A stretch of DNA of 64,000 nt from positions 608,001-672,000 of the forward strand of contig CAXXLZ010000002.1 in NCBI GenBank assembly GCA_963675595.2. Reading direction: 5' to 3'. The first letter of the stretch is position 1, and each line of letters starts with the position of its first letter. The notes beneath the pieces were generated by a model that worked only from the letters and a program-made list of their open reading frames with translations, did not search any database and was not told the DNA's origin. Made by a program: the position numbers and the translations under genes. The DNA is from Thermodesulfobacteriota bacterium. GTDB taxonomy: Bacteria > Desulfobacterota > Desulfarculia > JACQYL01. Shown here in pieces: positions 10,653 through 62,849 of this stretch.

Positions 10653-10744
10653 TTATCTTTCCGGGGATTCGTCATAAGGAGATCGAGCCTCCCCATTGCC
10701 GGAGTTTTCCATTACAATTTCAGTTCTTGAAGGAGGAAGTCCAA

Positions 10745-11281
10745 ATGCAGGTGAATGTCACCTTCAGGCATGTCGAACCTTCGGATGCCATCAAGCAATA
10801 TGCCGTTGACCGTCTGAATCGACTGGATAAGTTCATCGATACGGCGGGTGAAGCTCACGTGGTGTTGAGCGTTGAGAAGTTCAGGCACATGGCCGATGTT
10901 ACGATCAGCTTCAACGGATACAACATCAAAGGAGCTGAAGAAACGGGCGACCTTTACTCGGCCATCGACATGGTCATGGACAAGCTGGAACGACAGGTCA
11001 AGAAATATCGAGGCAAGATCAAGAAGAGAAAAACGGGACACAAGGAAGAATCGATCCGTTACACGATGGACGTCATCTCCACCGAAGGGGAGGAAGAGGA
11101 CAGCCTCAAAATCGTCGAAACCCAGAACGAATCCGCCAAGCCCATGGACGTGGAAGAAGCCGTCATGCAGTTGGACCTGACCGGTTTGGATTTCCTGGTG
11201 TTCAAGAATTCCACCACCCAACAAATTAATGTGATCTATCGGCGCAAGGACGGGCACTTCGGTCTGATTCAGCCCGAGTAA
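10745..11281 (+). CDS. hpf: Ribosome hibernation factor (long HPF/RaiA)
   Basis: VTFRH, DLYSAID, KLERQ, KPMDVEEAVMQ, YRRKDG. Confidence 0.95.
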   Translation: MQVNVTFRHVEPSDAIKQYAVDRLNRLDKFIDTAGEAHVVLSVEKFRHMADVTISFNGYNIKGAEETGDLYSAIDMVMDKLERQVKKYRGKIKKRKTGHKEESIRYTMDVISTEGEEEDSLKIVETQNESAKPMDVEEAVMQLDLTGLDFLVFKNSTTQQINVIYRRKDGHFGLIQPE

Positions 11282-11561
11282 GCCGAACACTGAGCCTTTC
11301 GCCCGGTCTGGGAGGGATTCCGGAGCCGCGGCAAGCCGGCGTCGGCGACATGAGCCGCCGGCGGCCCCGACTCTCCGCAATTACGCGTGGTGATCCCGGT
11401 GCCGTGCCGCCCGACGAACCGAGGACGCCATGGGGAGTTGCTTTCCGGCACCGTGGCCGGGATTCGGTGTGTGAACCCAGCGCGTGGCTCGTGCAGGGTT
11501 CTCTCGTGATCCTGAGGGTCCCGACCCGGGTTTCCGGAAAACCCTCCCAAAGGATGTTTCC

Positions 11562-12023
11562 ATGAAGTTGACCGACCTGCTGAAAGAAGAAAATATCATC
11601 GCGGACATCACTTCCCGCGACAAGAGCGGCGTCCTGCACGAACTGGTGAAGGGCTTCGCGGAGCAGACCGAAGACCTCGGTGAGGAAGAGTTTTTCGAGG
11701 TGCTCTCCGAACGAGAAAAACTCGGGAGTACCGGTATCGGCAACGGAGTCGCCATCCCTCACGGAAAACTGAAGCATTTGAGCAGGCATCTCATTTCATT
11801 CGGGCGAAGCCGCGACGGGATCGAATTCGACAGTATCGACGGGAAACCGGCCAGCCTGTTTTTTGTCCTTGTGGCTCCGGAGAATTCCTCCGGAGAACAC
11901 CTGAAGATACTTGCAAAGATATCGAAGATGCTGAAGAACAAGGACTTTCGTTCGAGACTTATCAAGGCCGAAGACCGCGAAGAAATTCACCGAGTGATCT
12001 CGGACTTCGATCAGGAATTCTGA
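11562..12023 (+). CDS. ptsN: PTS IIA(Ntr)-like protein
   Basis: REKLGSTGIGNGVAIPHG; follows rpoN-hpf. Confidence 0.93.
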   Translation: MKLTDLLKEENIIADITSRDKSGVLHELVKGFAEQTEDLGEEEFFEVLSEREKLGSTGIGNGVAIPHGKLKHLSRHLISFGRSRDGIEFDSIDGKPASLFFVLVAPENSSGEHLKILAKISKMLKNKDFRSRLIKAEDREEIHRVISDFDQEF

Positions 12024-12093
12024 AAAATCCGGACCCGAGGGGCACACGGAACGAATTCGCTTCCCCCTCCGAAGGCGAGAAGAACCGATTCCC

Positions 12094-12963
12094 ATGAGCA
12101 ATTCTCCCATCGTGATCATCACAGGTCTTTCGGGGTCGGGAAAAAGCACCGCCATCAAGGCCTTGGAAGACTCGGGCTTCTTCTGTATCGACAATTTGCC
12201 TCTGGTTCTCCTGCCTAAACTTCTGGACCTGAAAAACGAATTCGCCCAGGGAACCTTCAAGTTGGCCCTCGTAACGGACTTGAGGGAGAAGGATTTCGTG
12301 GATCGGTATCCCGGGACGTTCAAGGAATTGGAACGTCAGGGTTATCATGCGGAGATCATCTTTCTTGAGTCTTCGGACCAATCCCTGATACGCCGCTACA
12401 GCCAAACCCGAAGGCAGCACCCCCTCAGCCGCCCCGGAGTCTCATTGGGCGAGAGTATCCGGGAAGAACGGGGGAGGCTGTCCGATCTCCGTGATATGGC
12501 GAATCGTGTGATCGACACGTCCAACTTGACGATCCACGATTTACGGGCGCTGATCATCGATCACGTAACGAACGTCCCGCTGGCGGAACGCATGCGGATC
12601 GATCTGTTGTCCTTCGGATACAAGTTCGGTCTTCCCTACGAAGCGGACCTGGTGATGGATGTTCGCTTCCTGCCCAACCCATTTTTCGTACAAGAGCTGA
12701 AGAACAAAGATGGAAGGGACCCGGAGGTCGCGAGCTACGCTCTGGGAAAAGATCACGCCGCACCTTTCCTGGAAAAATTCGGAGACCTGCTGCTGACTCT
12801 CATCCCGCTTTATCGGCAGGAAGGCAAGTCGTACCTGACCATAGCGGTAGGTTGTACGGGCGGAAGACATCGGAGTGTGGCGGTCACGGAATCCTTGGCC
12901 GATTTTCTGCACCGGAACAATATTCGAGTCTTCTTAAAGCACCGGGACATCGACAAGGAGTAG
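12094..12963 (+). CDS. rapZ: RNase adapter RapZ
   Basis: GLSGSGKS, CIDNLP, SFGYKFG, DVRFLPNP, GCTGGRHRSV. Confidence 0.96.
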   Translation: MSNSPIVIITGLSGSGKSTAIKALEDSGFFCIDNLPLVLLPKLLDLKNEFAQGTFKLALVTDLREKDFVDRYPGTFKELERQGYHAEIIFLESSDQSLIRRYSQTRRQHPLSRPGVSLGESIREERGRLSDLRDMANRVIDTSNLTIHDLRALIIDHVTNVPLAERMRIDLLSFGYKFGLPYEADLVMDVRFLPNPFFVQELKNKDGRDPEVASYALGKDHAAPFLEKFGDLLLTLIPLYRQEGKSYLTIAVGCTGGRHRSVAVTESLADFLHRNNIRVFLKHRDIDKE

Positions 12964-12967
12964 CCTA

Positions 12968-13375
12968 ATGGTAGGCGTGTTGATCATCACTCATCTGAGA
13001 CTTGCGGAAGAACTGCTGAAGACTGCCGAATTCATCGTGGGAAGAATACAACAGGTGCGTACTCTGTGCTTGGCCCCGGACACCGATGTCGACCATCTGC
13101 ACAAAGACATCGAAAAAGCGATTAAGGAAGTCGACGACGGAGACGGCGTGTTGCTCCTTGTGGACATGCTCGGCGGAACCCCTTCGAATTTGGGGCTTTC
13201 CTTTCTGGAAGAAGGCCGCATCGAAGTGGTCACGGGAGTGAACCTCCCCATGGTGCTGAAACTCGCGAACCGCGGCGATCAATCAACCCTGTCCGAAGTA
13301 GCCGGTGAGATTCTCAACGCGGGACAGCGCGGCATTTCTTTGGCAGGCGACATATTGAACTGGAAGAGCCGATAG
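12968..13375 (+). CDS. PTS mannose/fructose-family IIA
   Basis: IITH phospho-His site, DMLGGTPSN, GVNLPM. Confidence 0.92.
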   Translation: MVGVLIITHLRLAEELLKTAEFIVGRIQQVRTLCLAPDTDVDHLHKDIEKAIKEVDDGDGVLLLVDMLGGTPSNLGLSFLEEGRIEVVTGVNLPMVLKLANRGDQSTLSEVAGEILNAGQRGISLAGDILNWKSR

Positions 13376-13378
13376 CCT

Positions 13379-13864
13379 ATGTCCCTGAGTCTTGTCCGTA
13401 TCGATTGCCGATTGATTCACGGGCAGGTACTGAACGCCTGGGTTCCCCATGTGCGATCGGACCGCATCGTGGTGGCGGATGACGATTTGGCGCTGAACAG
13501 TTTACGTCAAGCGATCATATCCGCTTCGGTGCCTCGGTCCCTGGAGGTCAAAATCGACACGGTGGAAGGCGCCGTGACCGACCTGTTACGGAACGGTTCG
13601 GGGAAGAATAGAGTGCTCCTTCTCTTCTCCGATTGTCGTAATGCCCGGAGGGCCTATTCCCTGGGACTGCATTTTCCCGCAATCAACGTGGGAAACATCC
13701 ATTTTTGTGAAGGAGCGCACGCCGTAACCTCGAGCGTGGCTTTGAGCGCGGCGGATTACAATTGTCTTAAGGAACTTGAGTGGGAAGGCGTGGAAGTTGA
13801 GCTTCGAGCGGTACCCGGAGATCGACGCCTCCGTCTCAAAGATATAGCGTCGATTGCCCAGTAG
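13379..13864 (+). CDS. PTS mannose/sorbose-family IIB
   Basis: RIDCRLIHGQV, INVGN. Confidence 0.92.
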   Translation: MSLSLVRIDCRLIHGQVLNAWVPHVRSDRIVVADDDLALNSLRQAIISASVPRSLEVKIDTVEGAVTDLLRNGSGKNRVLLLFSDCRNARRAYSLGLHFPAINVGNIHFCEGAHAVTSSVALSAADYNCLKELEWEGVEVELRAVPGDRRLRLKDIASIAQ

Positions 13865-13994
13865 CTTCCGGGGGACCGCCCCCCTCCGCCCCGGCCCATC
13901 GAAACACGGTCCCATTCCCCATAGGGCGGTCAGGCCGATTTCTGAAGCCGTCCGGTGTTCTCACATTACGCATACCCGTCCAACGGATGGAAGA

Positions 13995-14678
13995 ATGGTC
14001 TGGTTCTGTCTAAAACTGAGCCTGTTTGGCGCTCTCCTGTGGCTGGACCGTTCCCATGCGTTCCAGTTCATGATCAGTCGTCCCATCGTTGCCGGGCCCC
14101 TTGTGGGTCTATGTCTCGGGAATCCTTTAGACGGGCTGATCGTAGGGGGCATGCTCGAATTGTTGTGGGCTAGAAACCTTCCCTTGGGAAGCAGCGCGCC
14201 GCCTGATGAAACAATGATCGCCCTTCTGCTGCCGGCGGTGGGCGCCCTGGGTGTCGACACCGGGCTGGAAAGCAGGCACGCGGACTTGATGTACGGATTC
14301 TGGATATTCCTGCCCGCGGCCTATTTCAACCGAAGGATGGATATGAAACTTCGCGCGCTGAACAACCGGCTCAACCGGGCCGCCCTGCGCGCCGTGGAGC
14401 GAGGAAACCCGGAGAAAATCGGACGCTACAATCTCGCGGGCATGATTCCGGCCTATTTCACTACCGCTTCAGTCCTGTTTCTGTGCGGACTCGCCGGCCT
14501 CTCCTTCTTTCTTTATACCTTCCCGCTGTTGCCCAAGCCGGTACTCAAAGCACTGGACCTGATGGTTTACGTAGTCCCGCTTCTTGGAGTGGCTTCGGCT
14601 CTCCACAACGTCAAGGGAATCAAGAACGTACTGATCCTTACGGGTTCTTTCGCACTTTTTGTGATTCTGCTGAAATGA
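13995..14678 (+). CDS. PTS mannose-family IIC
   Basis: QFMISRPIVAGPLVG, GGMLELLW, PLGSSAPPD; hydrophobic; ATG at 13995 chosen. Confidence 0.85.
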   Translation: MVWFCLKLSLFGALLWLDRSHAFQFMISRPIVAGPLVGLCLGNPLDGLIVGGMLELLWARNLPLGSSAPPDETMIALLLPAVGALGVDTGLESRHADLMYGFWIFLPAAYFNRRMDMKLRALNNRLNRAALRAVERGNPEKIGRYNLAGMIPAYFTTASVLFLCGLAGLSFFLYTFPLLPKPVLKALDLMVYVVPLLGVASALHNVKGIKNVLILTGSFALFVILLK

Positions 14679-24834: not shown

Positions 24835-24921
24835 GCCGAAGTGGTGGAAATTGGTAGACACGCCATCTTGAGGGGGTGGTGGGCGACGCCCGTGCGGGTT
24901 CAAATCCCGCCTTCGGCACCA
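24835..24921 (+). tRNA. tRNA-Leu (anticodon GAG)
   Basis: GCCGAAG/CTTCGGC acceptor stem, TGGTAGAC D-loop, CCATC-TTGAGGG-GGTGG anticodon arm, long variable arm, GGTTCAAATCC, encoded CCA. Confidence 0.95.
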
Positions 24922-48484: not shown

Positions 48485-49798
48485 TCAGGCTTTGGCCGAA
48501 GCGCACAGAGCATCCTGGAAAAGTTCCATGCTTCCCTTGTTGGCGCAGAACTTTCCGCACATGGTGCAGGAAGTCAGGTCTTCGGGAGATCGCTCCATTC
48601 GGATGGCCCGGGCATCTTCCGCGAAAAGCGCAAGGTCGAACTGCTTTTCCCAGTCGGAGTCTCTCCTGGCCTTGCTCATGGCCAAGTCCCGTTGTCTTCC
48701 TCGTTCCGGATATTTGGCCGTGTCCCCGATGTACGCCGCCACGCGAGCCGCTTTGACTCCTTCCACCACGTCCTTTTCGTTGGGAAGCGCCAAGTGTTCT
48801 GCGGGAGTAATGTAGCAGATGAGGTCCGCGCCGAAACGCGCGCTCTGAGCCGCGCCGATGGCGGCGGTCACATGGTCCCAGCCCGCCGTCACATCGCTGG
48901 GAATGGGACCCAACATGTAGTAGGGAGCGTGGTTGCTCATCTGTTTTTGCAGGATGATGTTGGCCTCGATCTGATCCAGAGGCACATGGCCCGGCCCTTC
49001 CACCATCATTTGGCATCCCATGGCGCAACCGATCTCCGCCAATTCGCAATTGATGAGCAGTTCCTGAACCATGGCCCGGTCGAAGGAATCGTGAATGGCG
49101 CCGGCCCTTAGACCGTTACCCAAAGACAGCACCACGTCGTATTTCTTCAGGATTTCCACCACCCGATCGAACTTCTCATACAGGGGGTTTTCGCGGTTAT
49201 TCCGCTTCATCCACGCCACCATACTGGTGCCGCCCTTGCTCACAAGTCCTCCGTAGCGATAGCCCTGCTTCTCAAGCCGCTCGATGGTGTAGCGATTGAT
49301 ACCGCAATGGATGGCCATGAAGGCGAGACCGTCGGCGCACTGCGCTTCAATGAGGTCGAAAAGCAGCTCCTCATCCAGTTTGTTGGGGTCGCCGTACTTG
49401 TGTGCCGCCTCACAAAAGGCCTGGTAGAGCGGGACGTTTCCCACGGGGATTTGGACCGCTGCCAGGACCCCTCGCCGAATCCGGTCCAGGTCTCCTCCCA
49501 CGGAGAGTTCCATGAGGGTATCCGCTCCCGCGTTCTCCGCGGCCACGGCTTTGCGGACCTCGGCGTCCAGGTCCACGATGTCCGTGGAGGTACCGATGCT
49601 GGCGTTGATCTTGGTTCGGAGCCCGAGGCCGATGCCCACGGGTTTGGGGGGGTGATTGAGGTTGAAGGGAATCACCACTCGGCCGGCGGCCGTCAGTTCG
49701 CGGATGCTCTCGGCATCGAGCCCCTCCGCCGCGGCGATTTCCTTCATCTGCGGGGTTATGACGCCCTTCTTGGCGTATTCCACCTGCGTTGCCACCAT
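48485..49798 (-). CDS. bzaF: ThiC-family 5-hydroxybenzimidazole synthase (BzaF-like)
   Basis: TKINASIGTS, GADTLMELS, SKGG, EGPGHVP, YITPAEHL, CTMCGKFC; cobalamin riboswitch and cobT context argue against thiamine ThiC; SD AGGAGGA before ATG 49798. Confidence 0.85.
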   Translation of the reverse strand: MVATQVEYAKKGVITPQMKEIAAAEGLDAESIRELTAAGRVVIPFNLNHPPKPVGIGLGLRTKINASIGTSTDIVDLDAEVRKAVAAENAGADTLMELSVGGDLDRIRRGVLAAVQIPVGNVPLYQAFCEAAHKYGDPNKLDEELLFDLIEAQCADGLAFMAIHCGINRYTIERLEKQGYRYGGLVSKGGTSMVAWMKRNNRENPLYEKFDRVVEILKKYDVVLSLGNGLRAGAIHDSFDRAMVQELLINCELAEIGCAMGCQMMVEGPGHVPLDQIEANIILQKQMSNHAPYYMLGPIPSDVTAGWDHVTAAIGAAQSARFGADLICYITPAEHLALPNEKDVVEGVKAARVAAYIGDTAKYPERGRQRDLAMSKARRDSDWEKQFDLALFAEDARAIRMERSPEDLTSCTMCGKFCANKGSMELFQDALCASAKA

Positions 49799-49854
49799 TC
49801 TCCTCCTTTTCTTTAGAAGAATCGGTTCAAGCCGGCGGGTCGCCCGTCCGAGAC

Positions 49855-49890
49855 AAAAAAAATCCTCGGACGCGGAACGCCCAAGGATTT
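49855..49890 (-). terminator. Riboswitch expression-platform terminator
   Basis: Minus strand AAATCCTTGGGCG-TTCCG-CGTCCGAGGATTT followed by a T run, between the aptamer and bzaF. Confidence 0.75.
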
Positions 49891-49908
49891 GCCATCTCCT
49901 GGTAACGC

Positions 49909-50078
49909 CGACTGACGGCAGGTCTTCTGACTCTTGGATCATCCTACTTCCCGCGCCTTCCCACTCCATTGACATGAAGCAGTGACATTCTGCGGGTTTC
50001 GTCCCCAATCACAGCGGCGGGTCCGTACCGGATTTTCGCCGGTTTCCCCATTAAGGCCTTACGGCCGCCGATCAGTCG
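49909..50078 (-). ncRNA. Cobalamin riboswitch
   Basis: Minus strand: GGGGAAACCGGCGAAAATCCGGTACGGACCCGCCGCTGTGA, CACTG...GGGAAGG, B12 box GAGTCAGAAGACCTGCC, closing helix CGACTGA/TCAGTCG. Confidence 0.93.
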
Positions 50079-50182
50079 CCCTATTCAATTGTGCGGAGAA
50101 AGTTAGTCCGTACCCACCTTTCCAGTCAAGTGAAAAACGACCGGCTTCAATCCTCGGTACGACACGGCCGCCCCGAAGCGGC

Positions 50183-50983
50183 TCAATTCCGCCTCGAAAT
50201 TCCGTGTTCGTCGAGCAGTCGATCGAAACTTTGCCTGGCATGTTGATACAACGCCAGATCGAGTTGGTTGCGTTCAAGAATGAGCCTGGGTACCACGTCG
50301 AAGTCGATGGACTGGAATACTTCTTTCTTCACTTCGGATACCGCCGCGTTCATACGTCCCGTGGACTCGACATCGGAGAACCCCAGAATCCTTTTCATAA
50401 GCTCAAGGGAACGGGGATATTCCTCCATCAGGCCGATACAGGAAAAATGGCCGTCCAGATGATGAATCGCCCGGTTCAGGTCCGCCGGCTCAAGCTTGGG
50501 CCGAAAATCCGGGGTTCCGTCCTCCGTGCAAAGCAACCGTACCTGGCAGTTCTCGACCTCCACCGTGAGGTCCGACTGAACGAACTCTTCGATGGGCATC
50601 GGCTTTTCGGGGTTCCGGTGGACTTCAGAATAAAGGTAATGATTGGACCAAGTCCTGGCGTGAATATAAAAAGAAATCACTCGATCCACCGGATGACGGA
50701 GAAAAGTAACATAGGAACATCGTTCTCCGAAACGCTTGTGCCAACCGAAGGAAATATGGCCTTCAATACAGTCATACTTGCGAAGCAGGTCCGGGGGCAG
50801 CCGCTTGAGTCCGTTGACCGGATCGTCGTAAGTCGCCGTAAAAATTCGTTCCTCGTTGATGTTCTTCCGAATTACGGCACTGAATGTTGTTCCACCCGTC
50901 TTGGGTATATGAAGGAAGATGAGTTTCCGGCCGGGATTCAGACGTCCCAATACACAATTCTTAAGTCTCTGGAAGTAATTCAT
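50183..50983 (-). CDS. Sulfotransferase family protein
   Basis: FLHIPKTGGTT (5'-PSB), TFLRHPVDRVISFY (3'-PB), NQLDLALY. Confidence 0.88.
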   Translation of the reverse strand: MNYFQRLKNCVLGRLNPGRKLIFLHIPKTGGTTFSAVIRKNINEERIFTATYDDPVNGLKRLPPDLLRKYDCIEGHISFGWHKRFGERCSYVTFLRHPVDRVISFYIHARTWSNHYLYSEVHRNPEKPMPIEEFVQSDLTVEVENCQVRLLCTEDGTPDFRPKLEPADLNRAIHHLDGHFSCIGLMEEYPRSLELMKRILGFSDVESTGRMNAAVSEVKKEVFQSIDFDVVPRLILERNQLDLALYQHARQSFDRLLDEHGISRRN

Positions 50984-52311
50984 AAGAACACACCAATCAC
51001 GGCTGGGGGATAATGAATGTTCATACTCGTAACGGGAATATTCTAAGAAGTCTAGCGTCTTCTCTTCTTGGCGTTATTCCTATTTCAAATCTTAATCTTC
51101 CCGACTGTATCTTGCATGCGACGAGACCACAATCCGTTACCGGCTGATCCTCGCATACACACTTATTCATATTCCATAATATCAATACGGAACCGAGTGT
51201 AGCCTCTCATCCGTATCTTGGCGGCATCCGTATTTCATGAATGTGCCGGACGGATTCTCCAGCGCACAGAGCGAAATTTCATTTGGTTCTCCGGCACGGT
51301 CCGTGTCTGCGATACTCAACATTAGAGAGACGAGTCCATGAATACATCCTGCTTGCTTGCACAAACAAAGCCGCTCTTCGTATTCGTCACGGAACCGTCA
51401 AAAACAATGCAGTCTTTGGAGAATCGGTGACATTCTTATTTCAAATCTGCGGCGCTTTCAAGCCTTTTTGCAAGTACCGGACATATTCGAGGAGGCCGCC
51501 TGGTCGGATGAATCCGCCGGTCCACCGAGGAAGACCCGAGACAAACGGCCTCTCGGGAGGTCGTTGAAAAGAGCGATCTACGGGCCATGAGAGAATTGCC
51601 GAGCGAGCAAGGTCATCGTCCGGTCTCAGGCTCGGATACCGGATACCGCTCATCGGACGTAACGGTTCATCATCCCGGCATACGATACTCCGGGGTTTGC
51701 ACGCCTATTGATCTCACTGTGGGCATCCGGATCCATCCGTAATTTCGGTTCGATCTTGAAGCAGTCATTACGATTCAAGAATTAAGATATATTGTTTCGC
51801 AGATATTCATAGACTCGAACTACTCATTAAATCGGAGCTAATTGACGATTTGCCGGAAAAGGAAGGCAGGTCGGTCCGTAGTGAGGCTGAGACGCTGCGA
51901 GAGAGACGTTTCTCGGACGAGCGAACGAAGCAGGCCCGGCTCGGAACGGCATTCAAGCCGGCCCACCGGGGAAGTGGGGTGCGAGGCGCCGGCTGCGTTC
52001 AAAGGCCTTCTTTCAAGAAACGAGAGGATTTCATCAACGGAGTGATACGTGTCTTCGAGGTAATGAACGATGTGACAGGTCAAGCGGGACTTGATGGAAA
52101 CCGAATACAACAACGTTTCCCGAACGATGAAACCCGTGTGGAAAAGGGCACCCGCCCGGCTCCCCTTCCCGCCCGGTCATTCTCTACAATCGCCGTCCTT
52201 TCGACTTCATGATACGGCGCGCCGGGCCCGTCCATGCGACCTTGCCTTGGCCGGCGTATCCGATCAGCGTTCTGCATTTGCATTTCAACAAGGAAACAAC
52301 ACCCCTGTGCT

Positions 52312-55300
52312 CTACGATGTTCTCCTTCGCCGTAAGCGTGAAAGGGCCGCCACAGCCGCCAGAATCATCAGGACGGCGGCGCCCCGGGTGGTGAGGGTGG
52401 GGACGTGCGAAATCCGGGAATACGCCTCTGCGCCGGAGGATGTGTCGGGCGCGCAGGGGCCGCTCGGGTCCGTAATCGTTGTGTCGACTGCGTCGGTGTC
52501 GTAGGGCCCCCCTTCGGTCAGTTGAATGGTGATTTTGGTCTTATCGGGCACAGTGTCATGATCCACGGTCGTGGCAATGTCTTCCCATGCGCCGGTGTTT
52601 TTGTTTTCGTCGAAATAGCCCGTTATCGAAGCGTCCCTGGGAGTGAATACATCAATGGTTACCTTCTGGCCGGCCGTGACGCCGTGAACCTCGAAACTGA
52701 AGGCGCCGAAGGGCATTTGGAGATTGGAAGGCGCACCCACTGCGGTCGGAGAGAAGGCCGAAACGTTTTGAAGACTGATTCCTTCGTTGGCCCGGCAATC
52801 GAAGGTAACATATCCGGAGTCGTCATGGGTCGGCAGGGATGTGACATCGACCTGGTCTTGGTCCGGGATACCATCTCCGTTCCCGTCACCGGTACCGCCG
52901 CCCGGGGTAGGCACATTGGCCTCCGTTCCCGGAGCTACGCCGTCATTGTCGTCCGAGTCTCCGTTGAGGGTCAGGTCATAGGGATTTTCGTCGTCGTCAT
53001 TGTTGTCAATGGAGATGACGGCGGTTTTGTCGCCTGCGGACGTGGGGCTGAAGCGCACCGTAAAGTCGGTGGAACCGGACGCGGCCACGGGTGACGTGGG
53101 TTGCGACCGGATGCTGAATTGATCGGAGTCCGCGCCGCCCACCGAGAGGGGAGTGGTAAATGTCAGATTCGAGGTTCCGGTGTTTTCAATGGTAAACACC
53201 ACGTCCATATCCGTACCTGTAACCCGGCTTCCGAAGTCGTGCGCGCCGCCGTCCGTTATGGGGTTGATTCCCTGCTTGAGGGCGATTTCGGGCGCGGTCC
53301 CTTTACCGTTGAGGGTCAGGTCATAGGGATTTTCGTCGTCGTCATTGTTGTCAATGGAGATGACGGCGGTTTTGTCGCCTGCGGACGTGGGGCTGAAGCG
53401 CACCGTAAAGTCGGTGGAACCGGACCCGGCCACGGGTGACGTGGGTTGCGACCGGATGCTGAATTGATCGGAGTCCGCGCCGCCCACCGAAAGGGGAGTG
53501 GTAAATGTCAGATTCGAGGTTCCGGTGTTTTCAATGGTAAACACCACGTCCGTATCCGTACCTGTAACCCGGCTTCCGAAGTCGTGCGCGCCGCCGTCCG
53601 CTATGGGGTTGATTCCCTGCTTGAGGGTGATTTCGGGCGCGGTCCCTTTACCGTTGAGGGTCAGGTCATAAGGATTTTCGTCGTCGTCATTGTTGTCAAT
53701 GGAGATAACGGCGGTCTTGTCGCCTGTGGACGTGGGGCTGAAGCGCACCGTAAAGTCGGTGGAACCGGACGCGGCCACGGGTGACGTGGGTTGCGACCGG
53801 ATGCTGAATTGATCGGAGTCCGCGCCGCCCACCGAGAGGGGAGTGGTAAATGTCAGATTCGAGGTTCCGGTGTTTTCAATGGTAAACACCACGTCCGTAT
53901 CCGTACCTGTAACCCGGCTTCCGAAGTCGTGCGCGCCGCCGTCCGCTATGGGGTTGATTCCCTGCTTGAGACCCATTTCCGGTGGAGGAAGCTCGGAATA
54001 AGCACCAATGCTGATGGGACTTTCGGGTTCGATCTCAGCCCCACGCTGGTCATAGTAATTGCCTCCCGAAGTGGTGGCGCCGTTCCAAACACCGTTTCCC
54101 GAGTCGGCATATGGAATGGCATCAAGGGCAATACTGCCGCTTTCCAATGCCAGAGTTTGGGTGGGGCCGCCGTTGTCGGCCAATGTCTGGGTGGCTTTGC
54201 CGCTTCCGAAAAGATTCTCCATGCCGGAATAGATATTTGTGCTGTTGGTGAAGGTTTTGCCTGCCCCGGTTGTATCGCCGTTCTGCACGTAAACGATATT
54301 ATATCCCATGTCGTACAGAGTACCATATCCCACGTAGTAATAGTCCTCATCAGAATTCCCGGCTATAATCGTATTCCGTACGGTCATTGTGGAGCGAGGG
54401 GTACCAATGTTTTGATAGAAATACACTCCTCTTCCATAATTTGTTGCAGTATTTCCTGTTATTGTACAGTTCTCTATAGTAGAATAGATCGCTTTGAATG
54501 TCTGACCATAGGCTGCAACACCTCCTCCCCCGCTATTTCCGGCGGTGTTGTTACATATAGTTGATCTTCTGATGACTAAGTCTACGGAAGAAGTGCTTAG
54601 TTCGGCATTGACGATAGTATATATACCGTGTCCCGATTGGATTCCCGTATTGTTGTTTATGGTACACGCATCCACGCTCAAGTTGGAATTTTGGGCAAAT
54701 ACGCCTGAAGCACTGTATTGCGTGACGTTTTGGGAGACCGTGCAGTCCGTCATAGTGGCGGTGGACAGGTCGACGAACAGGCCTCCGACTTGATAGGTTG
54801 CCGTATTCCCTTTCAGGTCCGTTTGATCAAGATGAACGGTGCAGCCGGTGGCGTAGATGCCGCCCCCTTTATAGGACTTGGAGTCTGAAATCACGGAATT
54901 GTTGATGTTCACCGTTCCGGCGGAAATATAGACCGCGCCGCCATATCCGTTTTCAGTATCCCCATTTCCCGATATATCTCCGCCCTTGATCGTCATGTTG
55001 TCGAGCGTGACGGTTTTATCCGCGCCACTGATATGGAACACACGAAACGCGGACGCTCCGGGCGTCGTCACCTGCACGGTCACCGGGTTGGCGTTGCCCG
55101 TGTTGGCACCGTCTATGGTCAGACTTTTCGTGATTGCAAGCTCCGAAAGGATGGTGATGGTTTCATTTCCCGATGCCAGGTTGAAGGTGATGGCATCGTC
55201 TTCCGCGGCATCGGCGATGGCTTGACGCAGGGACCCTGCGCCGGAGTCTGCGTTGCCGGTCACCACGTGTTCGGCGGCGAACGCGGGAAGTATCGGCAAC

Positions 55301-55365
55301 AGGCAACAGCAAAGGGTACAAACGATGCGGATACTGATTCTTAAGCACGGATTGGCAACAATCAT
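52312..55365 (-). CDS. Secreted surface protein: beta-helix-like region, three Ig-like repeats, acidic domain, IPTL-CTERM sorting signal
   Basis: Signal peptide ending AFA; DSGAGSLRQAI; GGA-x repeats; LADNGGPTQT..DQRG..IGAY; GDGNGDG; C-terminal VPTL + TM + RRRR. Confidence 0.85.
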   Translation of the reverse strand: MIVANPCLRISIRIVCTLCCCLLPILPAFAAEHVVTGNADSGAGSLRQAIADAAEDDAITFNLASGNETITILSELAITKSLTIDGANTGNANPVTVQVTTPGASAFRVFHISGADKTVTLDNMTIKGGDISGNGDTENGYGGAVYISAGTVNINNSVISDSKSYKGGGIYATGCTVHLDQTDLKGNTATYQVGGLFVDLSTATMTDCTVSQNVTQYSASGVFAQNSNLSVDACTINNNTGIQSGHGIYTIVNAELSTSSVDLVIRRSTICNNTAGNSGGGGVAAYGQTFKAIYSTIENCTITGNTATNYGRGVYFYQNIGTPRSTMTVRNTIIAGNSDEDYYYVGYGTLYDMGYNIVYVQNGDTTGAGKTFTNSTNIYSGMENLFGSGKATQTLADNGGPTQTLALESGSIALDAIPYADSGNGVWNGATTSGGNYYDQRGAEIEPESPISIGAYSELPPPEMGLKQGINPIADGGAHDFGSRVTGTDTDVVFTIENTGTSNLTFTTPLSVGGADSDQFSIRSQPTSPVAASGSTDFTVRFSPTSTGDKTAVISIDNNDDDENPYDLTLNGKGTAPEITLKQGINPIADGGAHDFGSRVTGTDTDVVFTIENTGTSNLTFTTPLSVGGADSDQFSIRSQPTSPVAGSGSTDFTVRFSPTSAGDKTAVISIDNNDDDENPYDLTLNGKGTAPEIALKQGINPITDGGAHDFGSRVTGTDMDVVFTIENTGTSNLTFTTPLSVGGADSDQFSIRSQPTSPVAASGSTDFTVRFSPTSAGDKTAVISIDNNDDDENPYDLTLNGDSDDNDGVAPGTEANVPTPGGGTGDGNGDGIPDQDQVDVTSLPTHDDSGYVTFDCRANEGISLQNVSAFSPTAVGAPSNLQMPFGAFSFEVHGVTAGQKVTIDVFTPRDASITGYFDENKNTGAWEDIATTVDHDTVPDKTKITIQLTEGGPYDTDAVDTTITDPSGPCAPDTSSGAEAYSRISHVPTLTTRGAAVLMILAAVAALSRLRRRRTS
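52961..53970 (-). repeat. About 2.9 near-identical 345-bp tandem repeats (115-aa Ig-like domains)
   Basis: Unit start CCGTTGAGGGTCAGGTCATA at 52961, 53306 and 53651; only scattered substitutions. Confidence 0.95.
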
Positions 55366-55756
55366 GAAGAAACCTCTTTTTCCATTGTCATTTCAGATGC
55401 CTCGTTTGGTCGCGAGACGCTCGACAGGCTCCACATGTGCTCTTTGAAGGCCCGAAAGGTACTTGAAGCCGCTCTAAGCACTCCCAATGCGATCTCTGCC
55501 CGGCTTGAAAAGTTCTTCACGTACATTTCAGAAATACCTCTCCTACCGGAATCCCGCAACCCGTTTTTGAGATCATGCGTCTTCAATGCCGCCGGCCGAC
55601 GGATCCATCCGTGATTGCGGCTTGACTTTGAAGCGGTCACTACGATACAAAAAATTAAGACGTATTGTTTCGCAGACATTCATAGGTCGGCGGCTGAAGG
55701 ATGATATTTCCAAGCCGTACTCAGCTTACACGCACATTCGCAGATAGGAATCGACC

Positions 55757-56281
55757 ATGCAGGATACGCCCCGGACCAAGTCTACGCCGGATGAAAACAT
55801 CAGTCGTCGCAAGATACTCAAAGCGGTTGCCGCTCTTGGAGGGGCATTTGCCGGAACCGCCCTGGTACCCGGGAAATGGTCGTCTCCGGTCGTTGACTTG
55901 GGAGTCGTGCCGGCCCATGCGCAGGCCAATTCAGACCCTCTGGAGCTTATCGGAGAATTGGAGATTCATGAAGCCTCTCCCGACGTATTCGACGAGATAG
56001 CACCTCTGGACAACGCGATCTCCTATTCGGCTCAATGCGAATACAAGGATCCTCTCCGATCATTGACCTCCGCCAACACCACGGCTACCGGCAAGACCAA
56101 CTGCAGCGCCAGTGTCCCCACCAGCGTGAGCTATGTCTCTCCCGAACGGGCCTCTCAAGGCTATATCGGCTTCCTGTTCCAGACCGCGCTGTGCAATCTG
56201 ACGTCCACCGAATTCTGTGTGAAGATCAATTCCGGCAGTCGTTACAGCAATGAGAAATGCGCCCTCATCACGCATGAATGA
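55757..56281 (+). CDS. Tat-signal protein with WxxPxV...PAHAQ leader and a Ser/Thr/Cys-rich mature region; candidate modification substrate
   Basis: SRRKILK + hydrophobic stretch + PGKWSSPVVDLGVVPAHAQA; SD-like AGGA before ATG. Confidence 0.75.
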   Translation: MQDTPRTKSTPDENISRRKILKAVAALGGAFAGTALVPGKWSSPVVDLGVVPAHAQANSDPLELIGELEIHEASPDVFDEIAPLDNAISYSAQCEYKDPLRSLTSANTTATGKTNCSASVPTSVSYVSPERASQGYIGFLFQTALCNLTSTEFCVKINSGSRYSNEKCALITHE

Positions 56282-56365
56282 CGCCTCGTTTGTCCAAAGT
56301 CCGGGACCGGGTCCATTCGTGAACCTCCGGCTTCTCTCGTAAGGGACAAGTAGGGCAGGCGGCGA

Positions 56366-59300
56366 ATGGCGAAAATCGTCCTGTATACCTCCGGAACATT
56401 GGGAGATCACCTGCCGTTCATCGCTCTGGGTCGGGCGTTGGCGGAAGGCGGCCATGAGGTGCGCTTGGCCGCCAACAAAGCCATGCACTCCCATGTTCGG
56501 CGATCCGGTCTTGAGGCCGTCTCCCTGGGAGAGGAAGACTTAGGCCCACAAGAAGCCCGGCGTGACGCCTGGGCCTGGGACTTCTGGAAGTGTCCCGATC
56601 CGAGTTCCCATCCGCAAGCTCCTTCAGTCCCCTTCGAAAGCTACATGGTACAGGTGCACAATCTGCTGGAATTGTGCAAGGGAGCGGATATCCTGATTTC
56701 CACCGCCATCCGGCTGCAAGGTTTCATTGTCGCCCGTGCCCTCAAAATGCCCTGGCTTACCGCCTCACTGAACCCCTACACTTTCTGGGCGCCCGCCACG
56801 CCCAAGCAGGCACGAGATCAGTACCAACTTCGTCAAAAGGAATACCGCCGTTTCAGCGTAGTCGCGAACTTGGCCTTTGAGGAATTGGGCGTGGATGAAC
56901 GCGTCGGGGCCTGGTCGCCCGGCTGGCTCTATGCACGCCACATACTGCTCGCCGCCGGCGCTCATTTCGGCAAACCCGACCTCGATCAATTTCAGCCCAA
57001 CACCAGCATAGATATGACCGGATTCTGGTTTTACCAGGACCCCCGATGGTCGGAATGGAGACCGGATGAGGACCTGCTGCGGGTGTGCGAACCGGCGGAT
57101 CCGAACCGGAAGCCCATTGTTTTGTCTTTCAGCAGCCAACCCCTGCTGGAAGCGGAAAGCATCCTACAACGGCACGTTCGGGCGGCCGCCGCTCTGAATC
57201 GCCCTCTCGTGATCCAGCGTGGCTGGGCCGACTTCTCGGAATCCCAATTGCCGCCGGACGTGGACTCCGGGAACGTACTGTTTACCGATTTCATCCCCCA
57301 CGACTGGCTTTTTGCCCGGGCCGCCTGCACAATCCAGCATGGCGGCATCGGATCCATCGCCCGCGCACTGGCCCATGGCTGTCCCGTTCTAGTGGAACCT
57401 TTCGGCAACGATCAATTATTCAACGCAAACCTGGTTGAGAGGCTCGGTGTGGGAGCCGCACTCCATCCGTACGAAAGCGAGATCGAAGACCTGGTGGATG
57501 CCGTGCGGAACAAAGTGCTCACGCCCGACTGTCGGCACCGGGCAAAGACTTTGGGGGAGAAGATCAAGACCGAACACGGCCTGGAAACCGCCTGTGAAAT
57601 GATCGAGCGCTATCTCGGGCGTATCGGCCCCGACGGCGACCTCCCGAAGATATACGGACGCTTCGCTCCGCCCCTCGGCCGAAGGCCGCGACGCCCCATG
57701 AGCGCGGGAACCGACATTCAAGGCGGAGCCGTCTCAACGGTTGCGCCCACCGATGAGACCAAGAACGCCATTCCAAAAATCATCCATCAGACTTGGCAAA
57801 ACCACAACCTACCGCAGGACATGGCCGCCTGGCAGCGCACCTGGCTGAAGCATCACCCGGATTGGACGTATTACCTGTGGACGGATGAGGATAAACGCCG
57901 ATTCCTGAATGATCACTATTCCTGGTTCCTGCCTGTGTACGACGGGTATCCCGAGGAGATCATGCGGGTCGACGCCGTGCGATACTTTCTACTCCACCAT
58001 TACGGCGGGGTTTACGTAGACCTCGACTTCGAATGTTTCCGTCCTTTGGAGCCTCTTCTATCCGGCAAGACATTGTTTTTCGGCCTTGAACCCGAGGAAC
58101 ACGCCAGGCTTCAATCCACGGACCGCCACCGCGTCAGCTGGATCGTGTGCAACGCGTTCATGGCCTCGGTACCCGGACATCCTTTCTGGGAGCATTCGTT
58201 CAAGCAATTGATCGCTTATCACAAAGCCCCCGGAGTACTGGACGCAACAGGTCCTTTCTTTCTGACCCGGACCTGCCGAACCTACGCGAATCAGTCCGAA
58301 ATTCACCTCGAACCCCCGGAAACGCTGTACCCGATCCACAACCGACAGAAATGGGACAACCTGCCGGCCGAGGAACGGGAGCGCATCCGTGGAACCGCGT
58401 ATGGTGTTCATCATTGGAGCGGCGTTTGGTGGCGTCCAATCGTCGCGCAACAAGCCAATCAGGCTTCCGTGTTATTGGCCGACAAAGGCATGCAACTGGC
58501 CCAGGCCACCGCGGACCTCGAAGGCTGCCGCGCGTCTCTCTCACAATCGAGCGCCCCGCCGCTCATCTCCTGCCTGATGGTGACCCGAAATCGCCCGCAT
58601 TTGGCACAACGGGCGATCACCTGCTTTCAAAGGCAAACCTACCCTCAAAGAGAGTTGGTCATTGTGGACGACAGTCCGGATGACGCCCTCCAAGTCCGGG
58701 TCGACCGATTGCAGGATGAGCGCATCCGCTACCTGCGCCTGCTTCCCGGAGGCGCATCGCTCGGTGAGCTGCGCAACATTGCCGTTTGGAAGGCGGCCGG
58801 CGAGTATGTCGCCCAATGGGACGACGACGATCTCTCCGACCCCCTGCGGCTGGAAAACCAGATGGCCCTGATTCGGGCTTATCAGGTCGAAGCCTGCATG
58901 CTTGCCCGCCAAATTCTCTGGTGGCCTTCGAGACGCCGCTTGGCCGTCTCGACGCCTCGTATCTGGGAAGGCTCCTTTGTCTGCCGGCGAAAGGCTCTGC
59001 CTCCCTATCCTCATCAACGCAAGGGAGAGGACACCCCGGTCATCAACCGAATCGTCTCGGAGGAGAGGGTCGTTCTTCTGAATCTCCCCCAAATGTATGT
59101 GTACGTTTTTCACGGTGAAAACACTTTCGACGAAAGCCATTGGGAGAAGCTGTGGGCCGCCGCGGACGAATGGTATGAAGGCGATCATTACGACATCCGG
59201 ATACGGGAATTGGAAGAGCGCCTCAATTTGGACCTGAGTGGAAACGGGGAGCCTCCGACAACCGAGGCGTCCTCTCCGCGAGTCCCCTCTTCTTCCGAAG

Positions 59301-60181: not shown

Positions 60182-60190
60182 GGTGCTTTG

Positions 60191-60511
60191 ATGGAGACGA
60201 CGAACAATCCCGGCGGTCACCACGTACGAGACGACGACTATCCCACTCGGGAAAGCGACTTCACGCTCGAACAGCTGGACGGCGAGCTGCTTCTTTACCA
60301 CCCCACGGAGACCACCATTCTTTATCTCAACCAGACCGCTTCGATGATCTGGGGACTCTGCGACGGCAGCAGGAACGTGCGTCGGATCATCCAACTGCTC
60401 ATCGAGGCCTATCCCGATGGCGCTGAGGCCATCCCTTCGGAAGTGACCTCCACGCTGGAGAAATTCCTCGAAGCCGGCAGTATCCGTTTGGAGAACGAGC
60501 CAAAAGATTGA
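60191..60511 (+). CDS. Stand-alone PqqD-family RiPP recognition element (RRE)
   Basis: LDGELLLY..YLNQTASMIWGLCDGSR...L.EAY...V...LEKFLEAGSI pattern. Confidence 0.9.
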   Translation: METTNNPGGHHVRDDDYPTRESDFTLEQLDGELLLYHPTETTILYLNQTASMIWGLCDGSRNVRRIIQLLIEAYPDGAEAIPSEVTSTLEKFLEAGSIRLENEPKD

Positions 60512-60737
60512 AGGAACCGTGGGCTCGCTTTCTTTCTCAAGGGATTTCGTCCAAAATTCGTAACTCCCGGTCCTCTCCGCCCCGAGGGGATGCCGGATGT
60601 CAAGATCACGGAGCTTCGCCTGTGGATCCGGCGGTACTACGGAGTGCAATCGTCGGTCGGGATCGGTGTCGAAGGATGAACATACCCCACACGAGATGGA
60701 ATAAATCAAAGGACCGGTCAGTGAACCCGGAGAGGCC

Positions 60738-61601
60738 ATGAGATCGCGATGGGTACGATTTGCGGGAGTCATCCTCCGAATCGACTACGAAGGTGAAGCC
60801 GCTTCGCGCCTTGTGGACGTCCTTTATCGTCATCTCCCCGATGCTTCGGTTGCCGGCCGATTCCAGGCCCCCCATGTCGCGTATCGATTGATCGGCCACG
60901 ATGAAACCGGCGAACTGTGTCTCTTCATCGGGCAGGAAACCGAGGTGCGCTTCACCGAGCCGAGCGACATGGCGGCCTATTTGATGCATCAAACCTCCTA
61001 CGATCCGGCCTATCACTGCAAGGCCGGAATCATGCTCCACAGCGCCTGCATTTGCCGCCACAGGCGAGGCCTGCTGCTGCCCGGCGCTTCCGGCAGCGGA
61101 AAGACCACCCTCAGCGCTCGACTACTAAGCAGCGGATTCGATTTTCTGAGCGACGAACTGATTTTTGTCGGCCATGGAACCAACGAAGGCCAAGGGCTCA
61201 CGCTGCCCTTCAATTTCAAACCCTCCGCCCGGCCCTTGTGGGAAACCGCCTTCGGCATTCGACCTTCCGACCCGGCCATACTGAGCAACTCCGATTTGGA
61301 TCTCGTGCCGCCGGACCTGTTGAAAGGCGGCTCCACGGTCGAACAATCCACCCTGCACGCGGTCGTGTTCCCACACTTCACTCCCGAAGCAAAGAACGGC
61401 TTGCCCGAGCTGAAGCCCATGTCCAAAGCGCGGGCCGGTCTCAGACTCATGGAAGTGCTTCTTAACGCGCGCAATCTGCCGGGACACGGCTTCCCGGAGA
61501 TCAGCCGTCTGGCGCGGGACCTGCCCGCATACGAAATGGTTTATGGGGGGTTCGACGGAGTCGAACGGGCCGTCGGCAGTCTCCTTCCAACGGAAGGTTG
61601 A
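60738..61601 (+). CDS. HprK-related P-loop kinase
   Basis: LHSACI..GLLLPGASGSGKTTL..GFDFLSDE. Confidence 0.85.
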   Translation: MRSRWVRFAGVILRIDYEGEAASRLVDVLYRHLPDASVAGRFQAPHVAYRLIGHDETGELCLFIGQETEVRFTEPSDMAAYLMHQTSYDPAYHCKAGIMLHSACICRHRRGLLLPGASGSGKTTLSARLLSSGFDFLSDELIFVGHGTNEGQGLTLPFNFKPSARPLWETAFGIRPSDPAILSNSDLDLVPPDLLKGGSTVEQSTLHAVVFPHFTPEAKNGLPELKPMSKARAGLRLMEVLLNARNLPGHGFPEISRLARDLPAYEMVYGGFDGVERAVGSLLPTEG

Positions 61602-61706: not shown

Positions 61707-62849
61707 TCACGATTCCAGTGCACCCTGCACAAGACGACGCCCTATTCTTCCGGTCATATGTAAGGGGTGGATCAGGCAACGGTGGGGCCATGCGCTCCTG
61801 TTCGGACCCAACCCGTGGTAAAGTCTCAGCCACCAGTCGGATGGAAAAAACAGCTCCTTGTAAGAACGGAAGGCTCCCAGCCGCCTTACTACTTCCTTCC
61901 AGGGTGGAGAGCAGTCACGGAGGTCGGGCGTCATCGGTGGTCCGTCGGAAAAGCCGAGCAAATGCCTCAACTCATCCGGCAAAGGCCAACTCCGGTCGAG
62001 CAGTTCGAGCGTGTTCACTACCAGAGGCGACTCCTCCGCCGTCTTTGTCCAATCAATCCGACGGTAATAGCGCCGAGCCGTGAGCACAATGTCCAGCAAC
62101 CAGATCAGGGGAATCTTGAATACGGCATGGTCACACAAGTGGTGGCAAAGGTGCCACAGCATCCATTCCGGAGGCAGGGTTCGGGCGGGGACCCCACCCC
62201 GGGAAAGCTCGAAGTTCAAGGCGCGGTCCGGGCGACGATCCGGTACACGGCTACCGGGCACCTGCGGACGGGAAAGGCTGTGATGCAACTCGACCACCAC
62301 CTTCAACCCGTTCACCTCACATTGAAGCTCGGGAAGGTGTCTTTCGCGGTGTAAGCCGCCCAAACCATGTTCCAGCGGAAAGACATCGATACCGATGCCG
62401 GATAAGACCTCTTTGGCCTGCTCCAGTTGGGACGGATGAATCAACAGATCCAGATCGCTCATGGGCCGTAAATGCGGGTGATCGTAGACCAGATGCCCCA
62501 GTGCCGCACCCTTCAGCAGAAGAACATCGAGTCCCACCTCTGCGGCCGGCCTCAGAATGCGCCTCAGCACCGTGTTTTGCGCTTCGGACAAATCCCGCCG
62601 CCGCAAGTAGACCCCCTGCAAAGCGAGCCGAAGTTCGGGCTTCAGCTCCGCCTTCAGGTGCCGCACCAAATGATAGAGCAGGGCCCCCAATCCGTGCCTT
62701 TCGGCAACGCTTAGAAAGGCCACGGGGTCCACTTGATTCAGGCCGGAAACCAAGGCTTCCAAAGCCTGCTCCGGGGGCGAATCGAGCGGCACCAATCCTG
62801 CGGCCGTTATCAGCAGTTCCTCATGCGTTCGGCGAATATCATCGTGCAA
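61707..62849 (-). CDS. Nucleotidyltransferase family protein (NTP_transf_5-like)
   Basis: LLLKGAAL..Y...RPMSDLDLLI, VELHH, HLCHH, WLLDI. Confidence 0.87.
   Translation of the reverse strand: MHDDIRRTHEELLITAAGLVPLDSPPEQALEALVSGLNQVDPVAFLSVAERHGLGALLYHLVRHLKAELKPELRLALQGVYLRRRDLSEAQNTVLRRILRPAAEVGLDVLLLKGAALGHLVYDHPHLRPMSDLDLLIHPSQLEQAKEVLSGIGIDVFPLEHGLGGLHRERHLPELQCEVNGLKVVVELHHSLSRPQVPGSRVPDRRPDRALNFELSRGGVPARTLPPEWMLWHLCHHLCDHAVFKIPLIWLLDIVLTARRYYRRIDWTKTAEESPLVVNTLELLDRSWPLPDELRHLLGFSDGPPMTPDLRDCSPPWKEVVRRLGAFRSYKELFFPSDWWLRLYHGLGPNRSAWPHRCLIHPLHMTGRIGRRLVQGALES

Follow-up and report, generated by a model that had tools for sequence, protein, structure and literature searches.

Cassettes that combine a RiPP recognition element (RRE; RiPP, a peptide ribosomally synthesized and then modified post-translationally), an HprK-like kinase and a PF14907 protein without a lasso core are common, and outside Bacillota they have no assigned substrate. 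One such cassette lies in a stretch of 64,000 nucleotides (nt) from a Thermodesulfobacteriota bacterium (contig CAXXLZ010000002.1, positions 608,001 to 672,000; hereafter the window), next to a gene for a 174-amino-acid (aa) protein that begins like a twin-arginine translocation (Tat) signal. What does the cassette modify, and could the export signal of this protein also be the leader by which it is recognized? An earlier note on this DNA had proposed that one leader serves both RRE docking and Tat export, and the sequence comparisons reported here support this dual-role interpretation. We consider it probable that the 174-aa protein serves as substrate for the products of the adjoining RRE, kinase, PF14907 and glycosyltransferase genes, that its leader unites a Tat signal with an RRE-docking element, and that the protein is modified before export. 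The analysis establishes the anatomy and conservation of the leader, its genomic linkage to the cassette, the fold of the RRE and the presence of TatC and S26 signal peptidase genes in the same genome. Together with its relatives, the locus offers a candidate substrate in the form of a large Tat-leader protein family with a defined docking motif and a candidate modification site.

Inspection of the reading frame confirmed, residue by residue, the leader anatomy described in the earlier note: SRRKILK at aa 16–22, an h-region, a long c-region (PGKWSSPVVDLGVVPAHA, running from P38 to A55), an AxA site and then Q56-A57. The features of a Tat signal, namely an RR motif, an Ala/Gly h-region, a basic residue (K40) and A53-H-A55, are all present, and the NCBIfam model TAT_signal_seq (TIGR01409) scores 19.9 bits on residues 15–39 against a cut-off of 16.7. 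Within the c-region, WSSPVV had been read as a (Y/W)xxPx(L/V) motif; it fits this pattern, and its W41 and P44 are invariant in 94 relatives. Motifs of the [Y/W]xxPx[L/V] type are bound by the RREs of lasso peptides and of the linear polyphosphorylated peptide (LPP) system of Bacillota (PMC13381572, PMC10368454). The full precursor matched no Pfam family, the protein atlas gave no match at ≥0.9, and a promoter and terminator scan of 55300–56450 yielded nothing above shuffled controls.

The mature part had been characterized as rich in Ser and Thr, with five Cys, and as a small folded domain rather than a short core peptide, and this description held. Its 119 aa include 26 Ser+Thr (22%) and Cys at positions 94, 116, 146, 154 and 168, and in the AlphaFold2 model of the precursor (mean predicted local distance difference test (pLDDT) 84.1) it forms a beta-sandwich, the ten-residue blocks from residue 61 onwards scoring 87–98. 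Because Foldseek (best E 8.3e-4, template-modelling (TM) score 0.36) and VIA (best Z 7.9) returned only generic Ig-like or FN3-like beta-sandwiches, we draw no function for this domain; the mature protein is probably a small exported, glycan-bearing protein. A G-x-R-x-S-N motif near the C-terminus is common to a large subfamily of the leader proteins. As a separate observation, N-x-S/T sequons are enriched in the mature parts of 136 family proteins (212 compared with 160 +/- 11 in 500 shuffles, maximum 200); those of the window protein lie at aa 107, 115 and 147, and several in the family fall between conserved Cys. This enrichment may hint at additional N-glycosylation.

A word-based homology search found two relatives besides the query, in which the leader was near-identical to that of the window and the mature part had diverged. 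A profile search of 1.84 billion cluster representatives recovered 1808 proteins at E ≤ 1e-3; a threshold of 1e-10 left 118 of them, and one of 1e-30 left 3. For most of the best 150 matches the alignment was confined to profile positions ~7–60, which correspond to the leader. In the alignment of 94 sequences, R17, W41, P44 and A55 were invariant, and R18, L21, K22, A26, G29, P38, G49, P52, H54 and Q56 were conserved in at least 90%. TIGR01409 matched 14 of 14 relatives tested and Pfam TAT_signal (PF10518) 8 of 94; these models are generic, and neither Pfam nor NCBIfam holds one specific to the module. Residues around the predicted cleavage site were counted in those 146 of the best 151 proteins that have W..P followed by P.HA, a selection that itself imposes W(−15), P(−12), P(−4), H(−2) and A(−1). 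Gly stands at −7 in 142 of the 146, Gln at +1 in 139, Ser or Thr at +3 in another count of 139, and Ala after P(−4), completing P-A-H-A, in 126; Lys or Arg is common at two c-region positions. The fetched loci gave the same picture, with Gln at +1 in 29/30 and Ser/Thr at +3 in 29/30, and conservation drops abruptly past the stretch Q(+1), any residue, Ser/Thr(+3). The motif pattern that the earlier note had put forward for searches matched 64 of the 151 family proteins when taken literally and 130 in a relaxed form. These alignments indicate that the leader is a widespread conserved module and not a single case. That the WxxPxV motif is more than a chance match is argued from its conservation in relatives and not from a chance expectation for the motif itself. 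The window's own genome (6.8 Mb) has exactly one leader open reading frame (ORF) by regular expression, and the leader hidden Markov model (HMM) matched it at E 2.4e-22, the next best match being at 0.36.

The note had proposed to test whether proteins with this motif are associated with PqqD and kinase loci, and three genome samples showed such an association; related genomes are non-independent samples, and the co-occurrence counts carry no P value. The window's phylum was sampled with 301 genomes, of which G000, G140 and G160 alone have clear members of the leader family, two further weak matches covering the generic Tat part alone. The same three genomes, and no others, encoded the kinase at E ≤ 1e-100 (16 others had weaker matches, E 1e-32 to 1e-16). 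The genes are ordered leader gene, PF14907, PqqD and kinase in G140, and PqqD, leader gene, a 1462-aa multi-domain glycosyltransferase, kinase and PF14907 in G160. A named genome collection supplied 24 loci, 23 of them labelled Chloroflexota (Anaerolineae, Caldilineaceae, Promineifilaceae) and one Desulfobacteraceae. With HMMs built from three Desulfobacterota-type cassettes, at least one gene of the trio of kinase, nucleotidyltransferase and PqqD was detected in the fetched flank of 12 of these 24 loci, often abutting the leader gene. Six of the 12 trio-less loci belong to the assembly of L027, which itself has the whole trio, two lie on contigs of <5 kb and four have a kinase elsewhere in the genome; a kinase elsewhere was present in 5/5 genomes tested (these four and the L012 assembly), each at E ≤ 3.3e-92. 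Of 201 genomes sampled from the class of G305, 10 had the kinase (E ≤ 1e-20) and 9 the leader (E ≤ 1e-8); eight had both, and in seven of these eight the two lay within about 6 kb of each other. Many leaders can accompany a single cassette, as in G305 with 10 matches and in G409 with four in tandem beside the trio. At the level of the subfamily, the leader–cassette pattern is one-to-one.

Several of these loci have peculiarities of their own. The four tandem leader genes of G409 occupy 8669–14223 of locus L037 (G409:C5), and their leaders keep W..PVVE and Q-A/T-S. In L036 (G483:C42), a 416-aa frame at 8669–9916 that ends in a PqqD domain directly precedes a divergent leader gene; the upstream part of this frame appears polysaccharide deacetylase-like by eye. 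Immediately upstream of its intact leader gene, L013 has a second copy (9406–9745) that is divided between two frames and seems to be broken.

The genome of the window, rated 98% complete, contains one PqqD gene, one strong kinase gene, one PF14907 gene and one leader ORF, all of them in the cluster. The P-loop and the D-E columns of the kinase are invariant across 10 relatives. A glycosyltransferase fusion lies directly 3′ of the leader gene in 4 of 10 annotated loci (the window, L010, L013 and L027), which makes the four-domain glycosyltransferase a recurrent accessory rather than part of the core; among the 10 loci, neither a peptidase gene nor an exporter gene recurs. TatC is encoded in the window's genome and in 5/5 other leader-bearing genomes tested, and two S26 signal peptidase genes are present in the former on another contig than the cluster. 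In the window the PqqD and kinase genes are separated by a gap of 227 bp (60512–60737); in most related loci the two genes abut or overlap. The coordinates of all features are collected in the table.

Features of the precursor gene and the adjoining cassette (positions in the window)
Feature	Position	Strand	Basis
Precursor ORF, 174 aa	55757..56281	+	ATG start, AGGA 10-13 nt upstream
Leader, aa 1-55: n-region, twin-arginine motif, h-region, long conserved c-region	55757..55921	+	TIGR01409 and conservation
Twin-arginine motif S16-R17-R18-K19-I20-L21-K22	55802..55822	+	R17 invariant; R18, L21, K22 at least 90% (94 relatives)
h-region A23-V37, rich in Ala/Gly	55823..55867	+	
c-region P38-A55, 18 residues	55868..55921	+	Holds WSSPVV and AHA
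Candidate RRE-docking motif W41-S-S-P44-V-V46, [Y/W]xxPx[L/V] type	55877..55894	+	W and P invariant (94 sequences)
Predicted signal peptidase I site A53-H54-A55, putative cut after 55921	55913..55921	+	PAHA pattern
Mature start Q56-A-N-S59, candidate phosphorylation site	55922..55933	+	Gln +1 and Ser/Thr +3 conserved in family
Mature domain, 119 aa plus stop; predicted seven-strand Ig-like beta-sandwich	55922..56281	+	AlphaFold2
Fusion of four glycosyltransferase domains (GT1/GT28-like, Gly_transf_sug, GT2, Anp1), 1271 aa	56366..60181	+	
PqqD-family RRE; likely start ATG 60191	60188..60511	+	PF05402, E 4.7e-11
HprK-related kinase, P-loop G-x-S-G-x-G-K-T	60738..61601	+	TIGR04352, 76.5 bits (cut-off 200)
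PF14907 (NTP_transf_5) nucleotidyltransferase, convergent with kinase gene	61707..62849	-	PF14907, E 2.1e-38

The RRE model (pLDDT 91.4) consists of strands followed by three helices. Foldseek placed complexes of TbiB1 with its leader first (TM 0.73–0.76, normalised to the target), followed by PqqD and TfuB1, and the nearest structures are the lasso RRE–leader complexes 5v1v/5v1u and 6jx3. A profile of 11 cassette PqqDs matched TbiB1 (1e-5) and 9x8z_B (7.1e-5) in the PDB; the window RRE alone found 9x8z_B, which is LppB, as its best PDB sequence match (0.0023). The entry 9X8Z is the complex of LppB with the LppA leader (PMC13381572). Prediction of the RRE together with leader residues 12–62, an experiment that the earlier note had suggested, gave an interface score (ipSAE) of 0.54 in all three runs, compared with 0.01 for the best of three controls, with contacts agreeing to at least 91% and a partner pLDDT of at least 64. 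In a calibration whose counts are rough, own alignments having been used, 58 of 80 solved complexes and 2 of 110 mismatched pairs attained the mark; 7 of the 80 solved complexes and both passing mismatches did so at an ipSAE of 0.60 or less. The prediction lends weak support to docking of the leader on the RRE, and the score does not localise that docking to the W..P stretch.

From this evidence we infer a route that takes in RRE binding, the modified site, its chemistry, Tat export and cleavage at AHA/Q. The SRRxLLK motif and the h-region would form the Tat signal, and the long c-region would carry W-x-x-P-x-V. In the cytoplasm the RRE would bind the c-region around W41–V46 and recruit the kinase, which would phosphorylate a Ser or Thr just past the leader (+3 in the family; Ser59, at +4, in the window). 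The nucleotidyltransferase and the glycosyltransferase fusion would then build a phospho-linked glycan, Tat would export the folded, decorated beta-sandwich, and the general signal peptidase I would cut after A-H-A. Precedents for the single steps have been described: LppK places several phosphates onto core Ser3 (PMC13381572), BsfK phosphorylates core Ser3, accepts Thr and is accelerated by its RRE (PMC10368454), and the pseudomycoidin nucleotidyltransferase adds one or two hexoses onto the phosphate (PMC8498205). Between the aromatic residue of the motif and the target Ser, LPP has a spacing of 18, Bsf one of 19 and the leader family one of 17; for W41 and S59 of the window copy it is 18. 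A paeninodin-style C-terminal Ser was rejected as the phosphorylation site, as the C-termini are unconserved and no more than 7 of 151 proteins end in Ser. In this proposal the signal is of the Tat rather than the Sec type because a bulky modification would be made in the cytoplasm on a folded beta-sandwich, and a route through Tat and general signal peptidase I would need no dedicated leader peptidase or exporter. The earlier note had likewise suggested that signal peptidase replaces a leader peptidase. The part of this that rests on gene content stands: LppS is a precedent (PMC13381572), the cluster has no gene resembling LppS, and nothing in the genome matches PF13471; cleavage at AHA is the conditional part.

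Several observations weigh against this proposal. The mean pairwise identity is 60% over aa 14–58 and 19% over the mature part, a contrast that is partly circular, the relatives having been retrieved through the leader. The linkage counts are weakened by the relatedness of the genomes, and individual genomes depart from the pattern: G322 and G410 have a kinase only (weak matches, 1e-23 and 1e-28), and G483 has a divergent leader and no kinase at E ≤ 1e-20, with a PqqD domain adjoining the leader gene. The complex score is weak support, and since similar complexes have already been solved, the pass may reflect memory or likeness. The window copy itself carries Asn at +3, its Ser following at +4, as in L014. 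The four tandem paralogues of G409 keep W..P and Q-x-S and have K/R/M-N-L/F/Y in place of A-H-A, so an AxA cut is not constant in the family. The c-region, at 18 residues, is longer than usual, and signal peptidase I substrates seldom have one of that length. Single, double and triple Ala replacements of the Y, P and L of BsfA left phosphorylation intact (PMC10368454), so the W..P motif may not be the sole determinant, and LppN was without detectable activity in a heterologous host (PMC13381572).

The same leader features could be read as those of a RiPP-style leader that merely resembles a Tat signal, in which case the protein would be modified and would stay inside or leave by another way, its leader being kept or removed by some other protease. 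The G409 paralogues without AxA, the atypically long c-region and the match of Pfam TAT_signal to only 8 of 94 relatives would agree with this, as would the LPP leaders, which are not export signals and are served by a dedicated exporter (PMC13381572). However, R17 is invariant and R18, L21 and K22 are conserved in at least 90%, followed by an Ala/Gly-rich h-region; TIGR01409 passes its cut-off in the window and matches all 14 relatives; P-A-H-A occurs in 126 of 146 proteins; and the 10 annotated loci share no recurring exporter or peptidase gene. We regard this explanation as unlikely.

If the leader is a true Tat signal, the PqqD protein might mainly be a Tat proofreading chaperone in the manner of TorD or NapD, while the kinase, nucleotidyltransferase and glycosyltransferases act elsewhere, for example on a surface glycan. 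Tat signal-binding chaperones are well established, TorD, DmsD and NapD binding the signal peptide in the cytoplasm before export, and the window cluster adjoins genes for a large surface protein and a sulfotransferase. LPP clusters, for their part, are located in capsule loci (PMC13381572). Yet outside the window the kinase and nucleotidyltransferase travel with the leader gene and PqqD in unrelated neighbourhoods, the conserved Ser/Thr at +3 matches the site used by LppK and BsfK, and the RRE accelerates phosphorylation in Bsf (PMC10368454), so that a purely chaperoning role seems improbable to us.

An ordinary Tat-exported periplasmic protein that is a chance neighbour of an unrelated cassette would explain the generic Ig-like mature part of no known family, but co-occurrence and adjacency across two phyla contradict it, and the conserved c-region and Q-x-S/T exceed what export needs; we hold it to be highly improbable. 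A lasso precursor whose cyclase and protease are encoded elsewhere, suggested by the [Y/W]xxPx[L/V] motif and the lasso-like discrete RRE, can be set aside as having next to no probability, since the 119-aa 'core' is a predicted folded domain and not a short threadable peptide, the 98% complete genome has no match to PF13471 (the B2-type, transglutaminase-like family), and no asparagine-synthetase-like cyclase occurs among the 18 ORFs scanned in the interval that begins at 45257 and reaches 20 kb beyond the end of the window, no genome-wide cyclase search having been made. Without a cyclase in the scanned ORFs, a B2 protease or a short core, the product cannot be a lasso peptide. The label 'lasso-type' in the earlier note stands for the RRE and its motif and fails for everything else, the closest system being LPP.

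A stronger version of the substrate reading is possible, and we offer it tentatively: the Tat signal may be a true RiPP leader, whose binding by the RRE would both recruit the phosphoglycosylation line and hold back Tat export until decoration is complete, with the housekeeping signal peptidase as the leader peptidase. The logic of leader-guided RiPPs would then extend to whole exported proteins, and the locus would represent a cytoplasmic route of protein glycosylation that depends on Tat because its cargo is folded and bulky. Should the substrate reading itself be true, an export signal would double as the recognition tag for modifying enzymes, leader-guided modification would reach beyond peptides to folded proteins, and general cell machinery would replace the dedicated peptidase and exporter of LPP.

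Among the neighbouring features of the window, a 1017-aa surface protein (52312–55365, minus strand) is encoded divergently from the leader gene. It contains three near-identical repeats of ~115 aa (choice-of-anchor D) as well as choice-of-anchor Q and U domains, and it ends in a hydrophobic stretch and an Arg-rich tail that resemble an exosortase-type sorting signal. Over the 1.3 kb or so at 51000–52300 there is neither a long ORF nor an Rfam match that reaches the gathering score. At 49900–50088 on the minus strand, a cobalamin riboswitch (Rfam RF00174, 109 bits) lies inside the 5′ end of a ThiC-like ORF (48485–50008, minus strand), and the real start of this ORF is therefore further in; a ThiC homologue under cobalamin control may be a benzimidazole-synthase-type paralogue rather than the ThiC of thiamine synthesis. 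A tRNA gene (Rfam RF00005, 48.6 bits) lies at 24835–24918 on the plus strand. The sulfotransferase gene (PF03567) is at 50183–50983 on the minus strand, 4.8 kb upstream of the leader gene; some Firmicutes lasso clusters with kinase and nucleotidyltransferase genes begin with sulfotransferase genes (PMC8498205).

Of the known systems, the nearest is LPP of Bacillota (LppA/LppB/LppK/LppS/LppN/LppD; Popov et al., Nat Commun 2026, PMC13381572), as its main text describes it. Its core genes encode the discrete RRE LppB, the HprK-like kinase LppK, the uncharacterised NTP transferase LppN, the signal-peptidase-I-like (archaeal-type) LppS and the MsbA-like exporter LppD, and its precursors of 35–200 aa have a conserved N-terminal Y-x-x-P-x-V-L leader and variable C-termini; cleavage by LppS requires LppB (PMC13381572). 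The present system shares with it the set of RRE, HprK-like kinase and NTP transferase, LppN being likened to the PF14907 protein by description; a [Y/W]xxPxV leader on a precursor of no more than 200 aa whose C-terminal part varies; and a leader removed by a signal-peptidase-type enzyme, known for LPP and conditional here. Three positions past the leader, where LPP has its phosphorylated Ser3, a hydroxyl residue is conserved in the family, although the window copy has Asn there. The gene context is glycan-rich in both, and no PDB sequence matches the window RRE better than LppB.

The present system differs from LPP in having a twin-arginine leader, Trp instead of Tyr in the motif, a cargo that is mostly a folded domain and a four-domain glycosyltransferase in the operon. 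Its hosts are Chloroflexota-labelled genomes and members of the window's phylum, whereas the authors call LPP and the paeninodins restricted to Bacillota (PMC13381572). Neither the window cluster nor seven related annotated loci encode an LppS-like peptidase, with no TIGR02228 match reaching the cut-off, and no MsbA-like or other ABC exporter of the LppD type lies beside the window cassette, the related loci holding only unrelated ABC genes. The words Tat, twin-arginine, signal peptide and Chloroflex do not occur in the main text of PMC13381572 (supplements not covered), and a literature search that did not extend to the LPP supplementary precursor lists found no description of a Tat-leader variant.

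With the phosphorylated and phosphoglycosylated lasso peptides (paeninodin, Bsf and pseudomycoidin; PMC8498205, PMC10368454) the system has in common a B1-type RRE, an HPr-kinase homologue, a nucleotidyltransferase and a YxxPxL/WxxP leader motif, the paeninodin-type leaders carrying WxxP (PMC13381572); in contrast to them, we found here neither a macrolactam cyclase nor a B2 protease, nor a short core. The pairing of kinase and PqqD recalls HPr-rel-A as defined by the NCBIfam models TIGR04352 (kinase) and TIGR04353 (PqqD family chaperone), the window kinase and 10/10 relatives all having TIGR04352 as their top NCBIfam match. However, the window kinase reaches 76.5 bits against a cut-off of 200, and TIGR04353 does not detect the window PqqD at E ≤ 0.01 (2 of 11 PqqD relatives match it, weakly); on these scores the cassette belongs to a sister subfamily of HPr-rel-A and is not its equivalog. 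We know of no substrate described for HPr-rel-A. As with TorD, DmsD and NapD, a cytoplasmic binder of the Tat signal could hold back export until maturation; in contrast to TorD and NapD, the binder here is an RRE winged helix of unrelated fold, its proposed contact would lie in the c-region, and it would recruit modifying enzymes. Taken as a whole, the system is neither a lasso nor a strict LPP system and is a Tat-leader variant of the LPP and phosphorylated-RiPP kind.

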